Assembly (NCBI GenBank): GCA_963795855.1 | Contig: CAWCIZ010000001.1 | Coordinates: forward strand, 512,001 to 576,000 | Direction: 5' to 3' | Source: Vulcanimicrobiota bacterium | GTDB lineage: Bacteria; Vulcanimicrobiota; Vulcanimicrobiia; Vulcanimicrobiales; Vulcanimicrobiaceae | Length of the DNA: 64,000 nt | Shown here: positions 1,010 through 7,688 of the stretch, piece by piece | Numbering within the stretch: the first letter of the stretch is position 1 | Layout of the letters: each line of letters begins with the position of its first letter | Program-made: the position numbers and the translations under genes | Notes under the pieces: generated by a model | The model's input: only the letters and a program-made list of their open reading frames with translations | The model's database searches: none | What the model was told of the DNA's origin: nothing

Positions 1010-1144
1010 GTTTCTTCGACCGCCGCACGTTCGCAAGGTACCGGTTTCGCACCTGCAAACGTCGAACGGCCCAACGCTAAGATTCGCGTCATGCCTTGCG
1101 CGCCGCCCGCCAAAAAGCCGATACTAAAGATGGAGGCGAAGACG

Positions 1145-1987
1145 ATGATCCATGCGCTGCTTTTGGCCGCTCTGGGTGCCGTTCCGCCGTGTTGGGACGT
1201 CTTCGATGCTGCGCTGCGTCACAACGCAAACGGTGCGCATCCGCCGTACGTAACGTATAGCGAACGAATATCCGTAACTGAAGATCGCACTCCGCTCGTT
1301 TCGAGTATCGCGTATGTGGACTACCGCGACGACGGCGTTGCGCGCGTCATGGACGAGCGATTCAACTACGAACCATTCGTGACGCGTCATGCCGAACCGG
1401 GGCCGCCGGAATTGGGTCCGTATGGAACCAGGCGCGAAATGTGGCTGCCGGATGCCGGCGGCCTGCCGATCATCGCGCAGGTGCGAACGATGGGGGACGT
1501 GACGTGCACGATTGCCGATGAAGAGCCGTACAAGTCACACGAGACGTATCACTTGCATTTCAGCGGCGGACCGGCCACGCGGCCGTCGCTCAAAGACTTA
1601 TGGGTCGACACGAGAACGCGGGACATCTGGAAGCTCGAGATCACCGGTCCCGTCACGTTTTGGAGCGAAGGCAATCGCGATAACGAACTCGCGGAATTTC
1701 AAGTAGAGCTCGGCTATACCGGTCCATACCTGCTCGTGAATCATGTCGTGTGGGCGTACAGCCGCAGAGAGTATTCGCAGCGCGTCGACTATTTCGGCGA
1801 ATACACGTTCAGCGATTACGAATTTCCGGCGAAGATGCCGGCGTCGTTTTTCGGCAACGTGGCCGCAGCTTCCGATCTAGTTGCGAGCGGCCGTAAAAAA
1901 GCAGCCCCGCTTTCGCGGGGCTGCGGTATTGGTGGGCCATCCAAGGCTCGAACTTGGGACCTCATGCTTATCAAGCATGCGCTCTAA
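1145..1987 (+). CDS. hypothetical exported protein
   Basis: GGAGG RBS at 1132-1136; signal-like MIHALLLAALGA; the 3' end runs antisense into the tRNA-Ile terminator and gene, so the true stop may be earlier. Confidence 0.7.
   Translation: MIHALLLAALGAVPPCWDVFDAALRHNANGAHPPYVTYSERISVTEDRTPLVSSIAYVDYRDDGVARVMDERFNYEPFVTRHAEPGPPELGPYGTRREMWLPDAGGLPIIAQVRTMGDVTCTIADEEPYKSHETYHLHFSGGPATRPSLKDLWVDTRTRDIWKLEITGPVTFWSEGNRDNELAEFQVELGYTGPYLLVNHVVWAYSRREYSQRVDYFGEYTFSDYEFPAKMPASFFGNVAAASDLVASGRKKAAPLSRGCGIGGPSKARTWDLMLIKHAL
1895..1924 (-). terminator. intrinsic terminator after tRNA-Ile
   Basis: GCAGCCCCGC-GAAA-GCGGGGCTGC followed by T6 on the minus strand. Confidence 0.85.
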
Positions 1988-2006
1988 CCAACTGAGCTAA
2001 TGGCCC
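1930..2006 (-). tRNA. tRNA-Ile(GAT)
   Basis: GGGCCATTAGCTCAGTTGGTTAGAGC...TTGATAA...GTTCGAGCCTTGGATGGCCCACCA. Confidence 0.97.
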
Positions 2007-2060: not shown

Positions 2061-2273
2061 CTAGATCATAGCGATGTACTTCTTGAGCGCTTCGTCGTCG
2101 TCTTTGAGCTGGGCGAGCATCATGTCGCGCAGCACGTTGGCTTCGCGCTCGAGTTCCGCGCGTTCTTCCATCTCTCGATCGAACGTCGCTTGTTGCGCCG
2201 TGACGGCATCGTCGGCAGCCGGTTTGGCAGCACGCGCGGGCGTACGCGCTGCCATTTTCGTGCGATCGATCAC
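2061..2273 (-). CDS. small helical protein (70 aa), paralogous to the C-terminus of 2270-2647
   Basis: GTG start overlaps the upstream TGA (GTGA coupling); FD..M.E..E..RE.N.LRD...AQ.K.DD...KK.I..I motif. Confidence 0.8.
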   Translation of the reverse strand: MIDRTKMAARTPARAAKPAADDAVTAQQATFDREMEERAELEREANVLRDMMLAQLKDDDEALKKYIAMI

Positions 2274-2647
2274 TCGGTAATCGACTCGATGAATTTCTTG
2301 GTAATGGCGTCGTCGGCTTTGCGCTGCGCCATCTGAACGTCGCGAAGCGTGTTCACCTCGCGCATCTGCTCCGACTTCTCGTCCATCATCTCGTCAAACG
2401 CCTCGGATTGCACTTGCATCTGCTCTTGGTGCTGAATTTGCTCGGTGTACATGTAGAGTTGGAAGGCTTCGTCGCCGGCGTTAATCGCTCCGAGGCCGCC
2501 GTTTCCCAGCGCACCGGTCAAGTTTCCGGCCGTCGTGCCGCCCATCACGCCTCCGGCGAGCGCGCCGATGCCGGCCAGCAGCGGATTTCCCGTCATCGCG
2601 TACGTCTGCGCACCCATACCCAGCGCGGAACCGATATTCATTTGCAT
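2270..2647 (-). CDS. Gly-rich N-terminus / helical C-terminus protein (125 aa), unknown function
   Basis: Clean ORF in operon; TGNPLLAGIGALAGGVMGG segment followed by a Q/E/M-rich helix. Confidence 0.85.
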   Translation of the reverse strand: MQMNIGSALGMGAQTYAMTGNPLLAGIGALAGGVMGGTTAGNLTGALGNGGLGAINAGDEAFQLYMYTEQIQHQEQMQVQSEAFDEMMDEKSEQMREVNTLRDVQMAQRKADDAITKKFIESITE

Positions 2648-2656
2648 GGTGCGCGC

Positions 2657-2908
2657 CTATGCAGCGATCAGATCCGCATACGACGAGAGCGCGTTCACGT
2701 TCTGCTGCGCCGTCGGATTTTCGGCGCTGAGTTCGTCGAGAAGAGGGCTGAACGTGGGCACCGGCGTCGTTCCGCCCGACTGTGCGGACGAATTCGATAG
2801 CAACGCCATCGCGCCGGCGCCGGCTGCAACGACCGGGTTTGCCGTTTCGGCAAGGGTGAGAAGGCCGGTCGTCACGCCTTTGACGATGCCTCCGAGACTC
2901 AGGTGCAT
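2657..2908 (-). CDS. small protein (83 aa), unknown function
   Basis: AAGGAG RBS before ATG 2908; MHLSLGGIVKGVTTG...VNALSSYADLIAA. Confidence 0.8.
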   Translation of the reverse strand: MHLSLGGIVKGVTTGLLTLAETANPVVAAGAGAMALLSNSSAQSGGTTPVPTFSPLLDELSAENPTAQQNVNALSSYADLIAA

Positions 2909-2957
2909 ACGGTAACTCCTTAAAGTGAGATGCGCAGCGCTATCACGCCCGGCCGCG

Positions 2958-3620
2958 CTAGTTGCTAGATCCGTCCTGCGCAAAAACGATCGATCCGAAG
3001 TCCGGACTATTGTCGCGCGGACGGTTCGGATACGACTGCGGCAGTTCGCTCGGGCAAAGTGCGGGCGCAGGCACCTGAAGCGATGCAAATGACGAGAGTG
3101 CATTGACTGAGGCTTGTTCGTCTTGGCTATCCGCCGACAGCGCCTGCGTCAAAGTTTCCGGCGTGTCGCCTTGGAGGTCGGCGTAATGGCGAAGGACCGA
3201 GTCGGCGTAGCCGAGTCGTCGCCCGTCTTGCCACGACGTGATGGTCCCCGAGGCGTTCGGGTCGCCGGCATTGTACGCCGAAAGCGCCCTATGAACGTCG
3301 CCGCCGTAGCGTTTGAGTAGACCCGAGATCATCCCGGCGGCGTAGTCCGCATTCGATTGCGGATCCATTGCTGCCGCAGTAGTGGCGAAGGAATGGTAGC
3401 GATCGTCGATTTGGAAGATGCCGCGGCCATGGCCGCCGTCTCCGACGACGTTGCGGCCGGCATTGCTTCCCGGACCGCCGGTTTCTTGGGCGGCTACTGC
3501 CGCCAGGAGGGCCGGGTCTACGTGATACTTCCCTGCCGCGCTGGCGATTTCGGGCGCAAAGGCCACCCCGTGGAGCGCGAGCGAGCGGGCGGTCTGCGGG
3601 ATGCTCGTGACGATACTCAT
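2958..3620 (-). CDS. lytic transglycosylase (SLT domain) with C-terminal extension
   Basis: VDPALLAAVAAQET (catalytic Glu), GIFQI, ALSAYNAG motifs; no obvious Sec signal. Confidence 0.9.
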   Translation of the reverse strand: MSIVTSIPQTARSLALHGVAFAPEIASAAGKYHVDPALLAAVAAQETGGPGSNAGRNVVGDGGHGRGIFQIDDRYHSFATTAAAMDPQSNADYAAGMISGLLKRYGGDVHRALSAYNAGDPNASGTITSWQDGRRLGYADSVLRHYADLQGDTPETLTQALSADSQDEQASVNALSSFASLQVPAPALCPSELPQSYPNRPRDNSPDFGSIVFAQDGSSN

Positions 3621-7150: not shown

Positions 7151-7393
7151 ATGTCCACCACGTTCGATAAAGTCAAGAAGATCATCGTCGAGCAGCTCGG
7201 CGTTGACGAGTCGGAAGTGACGCCGGAAGCTTCGATCACGGATGATCTCGGCGCCGACTCACTCGACCAGGTCGAGCTCGTGATGGCCTTCGAGACGGAG
7301 TTCAACATCGATATTCCGGACGAAGAGGCGGAGAAAATCAAGACCGTCGGCGATGCGGTCAAGCGCGTCGAGGAAGCGACCGCAAAGGAATAA
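7151..7393 (+). CDS. acpP: acyl carrier protein
   Basis: DLGADSLD phosphopantetheine motif; AAGGAG RBS. Confidence 0.97.
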
Positions 7394-7688
7394 TCTGTGC
7401 GGCGCCCACGGGGAATGTCTAAGAAAGCAGAGGGTTTAGGCGCCGTGAGTTCTGGGGGCCCCAGCGCGAGTGGGGGGCGCGGAGCTCGGAGAAATCTGTG
7501 CGGCGCCCACGGGGAATGTCTAAGAAAGCAGAGGGTTTAGGCGCCGTGAGTTCTGGGGGCCCCAGCGCGAGTGGGGGGCGCGGAGCTCGGAGAAATCTGT
7601 GCGGCGCCCACGGGGAATGTCTAAGAAAGCAGAGGGTTTAGGCGCCGTGAGTTCTGGGGGCCCCAGCGCGAGCTGGGGGGCGCGGAGT
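7392..7688. repeat. tandem repeat, about 3 x 101 bp, self-complementary units
   Basis: Unit AATCTGTGCGGCGCCCACGGGG...GGAGCTCGGAGA starts at 7392, 7493 and 7594; copies almost identical. Confidence 0.97.

Follow-up and report, generated by a model that had tools for sequence, protein, structure and literature searches.

A GH23 enzyme without evident signal peptide is tied to a new family of small proteins in Eremiobacterota

Background

Enzymes dedicated to cutting the cell wall are usually accounted for by the machines which they serve, whether flagella, injectisomes, conjugation systems or phages. A four-gene operon that calls for a comparison with such systems is found within a stretch of 64,000 nucleotides, here called the window, from a Vulcanimicrobiota bacterium (assembly GCA_963795855.1, contig CAWCIZ010000001.1, positions 512,001 to 576,000). 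It encodes an enzyme of the GH23 family and three small proteins, p83, p125 and p70. In this operon a signal-less GH23 enzyme is tied, by gene order and by repeated fusion, to a new and extremely conserved small-protein family, which is kept in genomes devoid of type III gate genes. The original prediction, based on the letters of the window, had described the small proteins as exported filament or translocator subunits, likened to type III needle and Hrp pilin subunits, and the enzyme as a wall opener or antibacterial effector, all serving a secretion apparatus encoded elsewhere.

In phage-type holin/antiholin-endolysin cassettes and in type 10 secretion systems, a muralytic enzyme without signal is encoded next to small proteins which act on membranes and have charged C-termini. 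Similarly, p125 is small, has a charged C-terminus and is encoded beside a signal-less muralytic enzyme, and p70 could be a regulator copy. The p125 C-terminus is, however, acidic (net charge -9), unlike the basic one typical of holins; no segment of p125 reaches the hydropathy usual for a transmembrane span, no PHROG holin or spanin matches it, its operon is a core chromosomal one, and fusions occur.

A second term of comparison is EtgA, a GH23 enzyme which has a Sec signal and is encoded within the type III locus of enteropathogenic Escherichia coli. EtgA is reported to be controlled by the binding of a small helical partner, EscI, and a designed fusion of the two to be functional (PMC10880428). 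The enzyme-p125 fusions described below are natural; the window enzyme, in contrast to EtgA, has neither a signal nor a type III neighbourhood, p125 persists without the gate genes, and it bears no detectable sequence relation to rods of the EscI type. CwlQ of Bacillus subtilis is also a signal-less lytic transglycosylase leaving by a non-Sec route, which is reported to be the flagellar type III system (bioRxiv 10.1101/2021.01.13.426625). It differs in having no p125- or p70-like partners; moreover, export of the window enzyme cannot depend on flagellar type III secretion, because 12 genomes carrying p125 are without FlhA or FliP. Finally, HrpA, HrpE and the needle proteins (PF09589, PF28047, PF09392) are small and signal-less, with a variable or glycine-rich N-terminus and a conserved helix running to the last residue, as are p125 and p70; these, however, match none of the corresponding hidden Markov models (HMMs) and show no type III dependence.

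Results

The enzyme

Comparison with Pfam assigned the enzyme to the SLT family (PF01464; E 3.3e-11, 43.2 bits, above the cut-off of 21.3), which agrees with the family proposed originally and can now be refined. With a profile of 16 homologues, the closest relatives of solved structure proved to be goose-type lysozymes (E 4.5e-7). Lysozymes of this type also ranked first (E 2.8e-3, probability 1.00) when the model of a natural fusion protein was used in a Foldseek search, where other GH23 enzymes appeared further down the list and the EscI-EtgA fusion 8urn was found at rank 27. The NCBIfam model for IagB/IpgF/EtgA (IagB, NF011856) scored 30.8 bits against a cut-off of 208, which does not place the enzyme in that equivalog. 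On these comparisons, the protein is assigned to the GH23 muramidases or lytic transglycosylases, closest to the goose-type lysozymes.

In the alignment of the 16 homologues, E46 and 60 other columns are invariant. The GH23 motifs are retained, with little or no variation in AAQETGG, which includes E46, in G(L/I)FQID and in SAYNAG. We take these motifs to have the roles usual in the family, E46 being the catalytic glutamate of the E-S/T motif. The enzyme is predicted to be catalytically intact, and either lysozyme or lytic transglycosylase chemistry may be expected from it. About 15-20 hydrophilic, variable residues precede the catalytic domain, which extends approximately from residue 20 to 150 and is followed by a C-terminal tail (about 150-220) containing the module AE..Q.SVNALSSFASL. 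Within this variable tail, which corresponds to the C-terminal 70 residues, a conserved acidic stretch can be recognised, along with a short helix motif, an aromatic motif and a stretch rich in proline.

The homologue in genome G195 (locus L010) is interrupted by an in-frame TAG at the position where FQIDDR is otherwise followed by a conserved Trp codon; the gene has either become a pseudogene recently or been misassembled.

Signal peptides were judged by inspection and by 19-residue Kyte-Doolittle means. None was evident in any of the four proteins, as originally proposed, and the best means (0.99 for the enzyme, within its tail; 1.27 for p83; 1.32 for p125; -0.05 for p70) are all below 1.6, the usual threshold for transmembrane segments. 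Since the enzyme seems both intact and signal-less, a route to its substrate is needed.

The p125 family and its shared modules

Homologues of p125 numbered 218 in a collection of 5.8 billion proteins, all unnamed or annotated as 'hypothetical' and without Pfam domains; the named source taxa are Baltobacteraceae, Vulcanimicrobiaceae and Rubrimentiphilum, in accordance with a placement of the organism in Eremiobacterota. A profile search of 1.84 billion representatives yielded 145 proteins, and all of the 28 inspected are small p125- or p70-like proteins or fusions. No relative of the family was found in Pfam, NCBIfam or the PDB, and the PADLOC defence models gave no match. Profiles built on the alignments of p125 and p70 retrieved only chance-level rows from the PDB (E 0.21 or worse). 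Foldseek found no match for the p125 model; with a single long helix predicted at modest confidence, this blank is uninformative. p125 can be considered the founding member of a new small-protein family, in keeping with the early impression that the small proteins belong to no known one.

The protein consists of two different halves. Residues 1-57 are uncharged and 46% glycine plus alanine, with one invariant proline and stacked small-xxx-small motifs; a weak match to the glycine-zipper region of Pfam C19orf12 was detected for p125 (E 0.0073). Residues 58-125 form a predicted helix with a net charge of -9, nearly invariant across the family (alignment A1) and conserved far above the neighbouring YceD. 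Its heptad hydrophobic occupancy is weak (0.42). In the AlphaFold2 monomer (mean predicted local distance difference test, pLDDT, 65.9) helices span residues 5-19, 22-34 and 43-124, the first two being short and glycine-rich, with a disordered glycine stretch; at this modest confidence the last of them is a single long helix, and no hairpin fold of the needle type is predicted.

The C-terminal helix is found again in p70. The two proteins match in BLASTP (E 8e-6, 21/44 identical residues) and, by profile-profile comparison with hhalign, over 68 columns (99.0% probability, E 3.5e-18), so that p70 is a soluble paralogue of the C-terminal part of p125, namely of its last 68 residues. The N-terminus of p70 varies, with a high content of alanine, proline and arginine, while the C-terminus, ending in KK(W/Y)IA(L/M)I, is conserved in the alignment of 28 homologues (A2).

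p83 combines segments related to both other gene products. It matches the enzyme tail (E 3e-4, 13/25 identical) and, more strongly in part, the tails of related enzymes (L008, L009, L010, L011, L019; E 2.9e-4 to 4.3e-12). It also matches p125 (E 4e-4), and its N-terminus the p125 part of fusion P0265 (E 5e-9, 18/35 identical). No match was found in Pfam, NCBIfam, PHROG or PADLOC. p83 is accordingly a chimera, in which a p125-type N-terminal hairpin rich in glycine and alanine is joined to a copy of the enzyme tail.

These comparisons bear out the chain of motifs noticed in the original prediction: the VNALSS link between enzyme and p83 is part of a tail module shared beyond chance, and both the N-terminal motif common to p83 and p125 and the C-terminal helix common to p125 and p70 were recovered at the significance given above. 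The chain is real and reflects shuffled modules. A single motif running through all four proteins, obtained by aligning VNALSS to VNTLRD, was dropped: a motif common to all of them is not supported, as the enzyme-family and p125-family profiles do not match significantly (probability 0.9%).

Distribution and gene order

The distribution was evaluated in 301 genomes of Eremiobacterota (Vulcanimicrobiota at NCBI), whose relevant families are labelled f1, f2 and f3; the source genome is G000. Six of the genomes are unpublished, and no conclusion hangs on any one of them: G264 provides L028, which was included among the 30 synteny loci and contributes a row to alignments A2 and A3; G128 belongs to the 12 p125 genomes without type III genes discussed below; G246, G213, G233 and G248 enter only the p125 and FHIPEP tallies.

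p125 was matched in 221 of the 301 genomes. Nearly all belong to one class, formed by f1-f3, where 218 of 232 genomes are positive (192/206 in f1, 3/3 in f2 and 22/22 in f3); the 69 genomes outside these families gave only three matches (E 3.7e-4 to 9.3e-4).

Synteny was examined in the 30 best f1 loci, including that of the window. The enzyme lies beside p125 in 28 of them, while p70 is found in all 30 (cut in one case by a contig end) and yceD in 26; the order yceD, enzyme, a variable gene, p125, p70 is kept across f1. The proposal that the four genes form a conserved and physically coupled set is thus borne out for enzyme, p125 and p70, both by synteny and by the recurrent fusions described below. 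The second position was surveyed in part of the f1 loci: a p83-like open reading frame (ORF) is present in L007 and L011, an ORF of 105-133 residues with another N-terminus and the same tail module occupies it in five g4 loci, and no second gene is found in several loci, such as L008, L010, L012, L015 and L016. In L019 the p83-like gene is fused to the enzyme. In L021 (G241:C107:1903-3874), also from f1, p125 follows yceD after about 250 nucleotides with no enzyme gene between them; the enzyme appears to have been lost or moved in this genome.

The operon is always divergent beside ribosomal-protein operons (yceD-rpmF or rpmE), and, as far as its distribution tells, is vertically inherited and part of the core of the class. 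Outside f1 it is simpler. In G055, an order-level relative from f2, yceD lies beside p125 and p70 with no adjoining enzyme; in four f3 genomes only a p125 of 97 residues is found, beside rpmE-prfA-prmC. The best enzyme homologues of these five genomes lie elsewhere and are 34-43% identical. Since p125 occurs there without an adjoining enzyme, it represents the old core of the system, which p70 and the enzyme joined later.

The solitary p125 beside rpmE-prfA in f3 and the p125-p70 pair of G055 may also be taken to indicate a housekeeping coiled-coil scaffold, intracellular or organising the envelope, for example in division or wall growth, to which one family later recruited a muramidase exported by an unrecognised route. 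The constant divergent position beside ribosomal-protein operons, the extreme conservation of the helix and the near-universal presence in the class would suit such a role. We nevertheless consider it improbable: similarity to known division or cytoskeletal families is missing, the heptad pattern is weak, as said, and it would be left unexplained how a signal-less, intact enzyme meets its substrate.

A putative recombinase is associated with p125 in some genomes. In L064 (G177:C1:2817192-2820290) an ORF of 517 residues, resembling large serine recombinases by its motifs, reads into the last 33 codons of p125, and related arrangements are found in G203, in G075 and in protein P0182. The p125 halves of G177 and G203, with p70, are 16-72 kb apart, and G075 has a partial second p125 copy about 58 kb from the intact one. 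This looks like an integrative element targeting the conserved 3' end of p125.

Enzyme-p125 fusions

Natural fusions of enzyme and p125, 263-289 residues long, make up the protein clusters P0140 and P0265-P0268, and another is L081 of genome G181. They consist of the enzyme, a glycine-rich stretch and the long helix. They probably arose more than once, because at least four different p125 N-terminal types are represented. The enzyme tail module is absent from every one of them; a role of the tail in non-covalent coupling, where the proteins are separate, would fit this loss. Eleven long open frames around p125 were evaluated as further fusions. Only L081 is a clear fusion; L080 is in frame, with one base unread where the two parts meet, and the remaining nine were rejected, being in other reading frames.

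The same layout, together with the missing signal peptide and a catalytic domain closest to goose-type lysozymes, antibacterial in animals, recalls the architecture of colicins or pesticin, and the operon could encode a bacteriocin-like weapon released by lysis. This is very unlikely, as the helix hardly varies instead of diversifying, the operon belongs to the vertically inherited core, no type VI secretion system or contractile sheath was found in G000, and no immunity candidate is conserved. The 298-residue product of the neighbouring ORF (p298) was considered for the latter role and rejected: it matched over its full length only in its own locus and six others of the 30, and short 'C-terminal' matches elsewhere overlap a tRNA-Ile gene. 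Delivery by a type VI system or another contractile injector was likewise rejected, since neither type VI nor phage sheath genes were found in G000, which is 86% complete.

Relation to type III machines

Export by a reduced flagellar machine encoded elsewhere, with p125 and p70 as needle- or Hrp-pilus-like substrates and the enzyme as the dedicated wall opener, was evaluated from the presence of gate genes. FHIPEP (FlhA/SctV) was found in 287 of the 301 genomes. Within f1-f3, p125 is present in 206 of 218 genomes with FHIPEP and in 12 of 14 without it, which contradicts the link to a type III machine made in the original prediction. Co-occurrence with export genes had been set beforehand as the comparison able to refute that prediction, and p125 proved to be kept where both FHIPEP and FliP are missing. 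The 12 genomes (G043, G081, G195, G210, G107, G173, G182, G184, G194, G192, G300 and G128) are 91-100% complete and belong to five genera. FliP is missing in all of them and FlhB in the four tested (G043, G081, G195, G210); the control genome G061 was positive for both.

Among three closely examined type-III-less genomes, the ratio of nonsynonymous to synonymous substitution rates (dN/dS) is 0.10-0.16 for the enzyme, 0.01-0.04 for p125 and 0.05-0.14 for p70, at dS values of 0.44-1.29; these ratios are like those of pairs keeping the machine, although the machine may have been lost before or after these divergences. The operon is under purifying selection in these three genomes. Obligate type III export is contradicted, because p125 and its operon are kept without FlhA/SctV and FliP.

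Two flagellar-type clusters are present in the source genome, a canonical one on contig 2 and a second, reduced one on contig 3 (about 817.7-831.9 kb; L005 6692-19853, and L002). The latter comprises flgC, fliE, fliF with a stub of the fliG middle domain, fliH, fliI, an SLT gene, a gene for a retropepsin-like aspartyl protease, a hook-like gene, two fliN-like genes, fliP, an inserted MTHFR gene, fliQ, fliR, flhB, which reads as two overlapping ORFs, and flhA. Many f1 genomes have a single FHIPEP copy, whose score is as weak as is usual for copies from the reduced operon.

Several observations would favour a type III substrate. Most family genomes have the reduced flagellar operon and no obvious filament, and the cultured relative, a diderm moving by type IV pili, is reported to have neither flagella nor a flagellin gene (PMC9758169). 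The small proteins have no signal, differ at their N-termini and keep a conserved helix at the C-terminus; IagB is the best, though sub-threshold, NCBIfam match of the enzyme; and the EtgA-EscI pair offers a precedent of an enzyme whose partner is small and helical (PMC10880428). Among named ESM-Atlas clusters, the nearest are HrpA_pilin (0.87, 174 shared features) and HrpE-like (0.83) for p125, and HrpE (0.90), HrpA-like (0.86) and T3SS_needle_F (0.85) for p70; the two results are not independent, because the proteins are paralogues. Weak matches to Pfam SctB2 were obtained for 3 of 18 p125 homologues (best E 0.0043).

Scores of 0.90 or less in ESM-Atlas, as well as the SctB2 matches, are nevertheless leads only. 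The Pfam needle and Hrp models (PF09392, PF09589, PF28047) matched neither p70, p83 and p125 at E<=1 nor the 18 p125 homologues at E<=10, and a likeness of the p125 C-terminus to that of needle proteins, seen by eye, was discarded, as no HMM backs it. Furthermore, the operon adjoins type III genes in 0 of 46 loci examined, and a separate SLT (183 residues, Pfam E 3.5e-28), only 28% identical to the window enzyme, is already encoded within the reduced flagellar operon. Together with the persistence of p125 in the 12 genomes, and the selection seen in three, this makes a type III substrate unlikely.

Locus and flanking sequences

The features of the window are reported in Table 1. The co-orientation, lengths and spacing of the four genes are as first described, all lying on the reverse strand with gaps of 49, 9 and -4 nucleotides. 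An alternative reading of p83, of 148 residues from position 3103, would overlap the enzyme gene, and the relative in L011 begins at the equivalent methionine.

Table 1. Positions of the operon and of other features within the window.
Feature	Position	Strand	Remarks
GH23 enzyme gene	2958-3620	-	220 residues; without evident signal peptide
p83 gene	2657-2908	-	83 residues; AAGGAG just 5' of the ATG
p125 gene	2270-2647	-	125 residues
p70 gene	2061-2273	-	70 residues; GTG start, 4-nucleotide overlap with the p125 stop
p298 ORF	1091-1987		298 residues; final 58 bases overlap tRNA-Ile
RNA gene cluster	263-1009 and 1930-2006	-	RNase P RNA (class A, 250.8 bits), tRNA-Ala(GGC), tRNA-Ala(UGC), tRNA-Ile(GAU)
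Tandem repeat	7392-7687		101-bp unit, 2.9 copies, 99% identical
Repeat-derived ORFs	7397-7540 and 7498-7641		two identical ORFs of 47 residues

On the 5' side, transcribed divergently, are yceD-rpmF-fabH-fabD-fabG-acpP and ffh. The 3' side contains tRNA-Ile, the secreted-looking p298 ORF, two tRNA-Ala genes and RNase P RNA; no phage genes were found near the operon. The stable RNA genes are clustered without rRNA genes. The annotated end of p298 is probably a read-through, because its last bases overlap tRNA-Ile. The tandem repeat lies between acpP and ffh. Among the titles and abstract openings listed for Eremiobacterota flagella and for Eremiobacter type III secretion, there was no account of the operon.

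Discussion

The reading we favour, with a probability of roughly 35%, is a self-contained wall-opening module, in which p125 would carry or anchor the signal-less enzyme to peptidoglycan without a type III machine, and p70 would pair with the p125 helix. It draws on the coupling of enzyme and p125, seen in synteny, in the enzyme-p125 fusions and in the fusion of enzyme and p83-like gene in L019; on the independence from type III genes; on the lack of a sheath-type injector in G000; and on the two-part anatomy of p125.

Every step beyond this coupling is what we infer from it. The glycine-zipper, weakly hydrophobic hairpin of p125 may associate with the cytoplasmic membrane or insert into it, and oligomerise in a holin-like manner. 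The enzyme would travel with p125, covalently in the fusions, or by means of its tail or of the p83 module, and p125 would carry or admit it across to the wall. By pairing with the p125 helix, p70 could act as an antiholin-like regulator or as a subunit of a common assembly.

Different observations weigh against such a module. A lethal holin is hardly to be expected in an operon that is part of the core and kept universally, and to our knowledge holin-endolysin fusions are not a known arrangement. The hydropathy of p125 is too low for a confident membrane span, the best 19-residue means of 18 homologues ranging from 0.86 to 1.37, below 1.6. Pfam holin families match neither p125 nor these homologues, and PHROGs give no confident holin or spanin, the hits being to families of unknown function (E 0.02-0.15). 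In addition, p125 is older than its pairing with the enzyme, as indicated by the p125-p70 pair of G055 and by the solitary 97-residue p125 of four f3 genomes, and the enzyme gene of the type-III-less genome G195 carries the in-frame TAG.

Low odds are also given to a different construction from the same parts, in which p125 and p70 build an envelope structure or export route of a kind not described so far, independent of type III and specific to Eremiobacterota: a glycine-zipper and long-helix assembly, similar to a pilus or a channel, would take its own muramidase over the inner membrane and through the wall, and would thereby represent a non-Sec delivery system of a new kind.

If p125 carries the enzyme, as in the wall-opening module favoured here, the operon would represent a new means by which bacteria export a wall hydrolase in its folded state, and a function would be provided for a gene which ranks among the most conserved of those specific to this lineage, a soil phylum that is widespread but has hardly been cultured. 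The question is directly testable, because a cultured, non-pathogenic relative, Vulcanimicrobium alpinus, exists.

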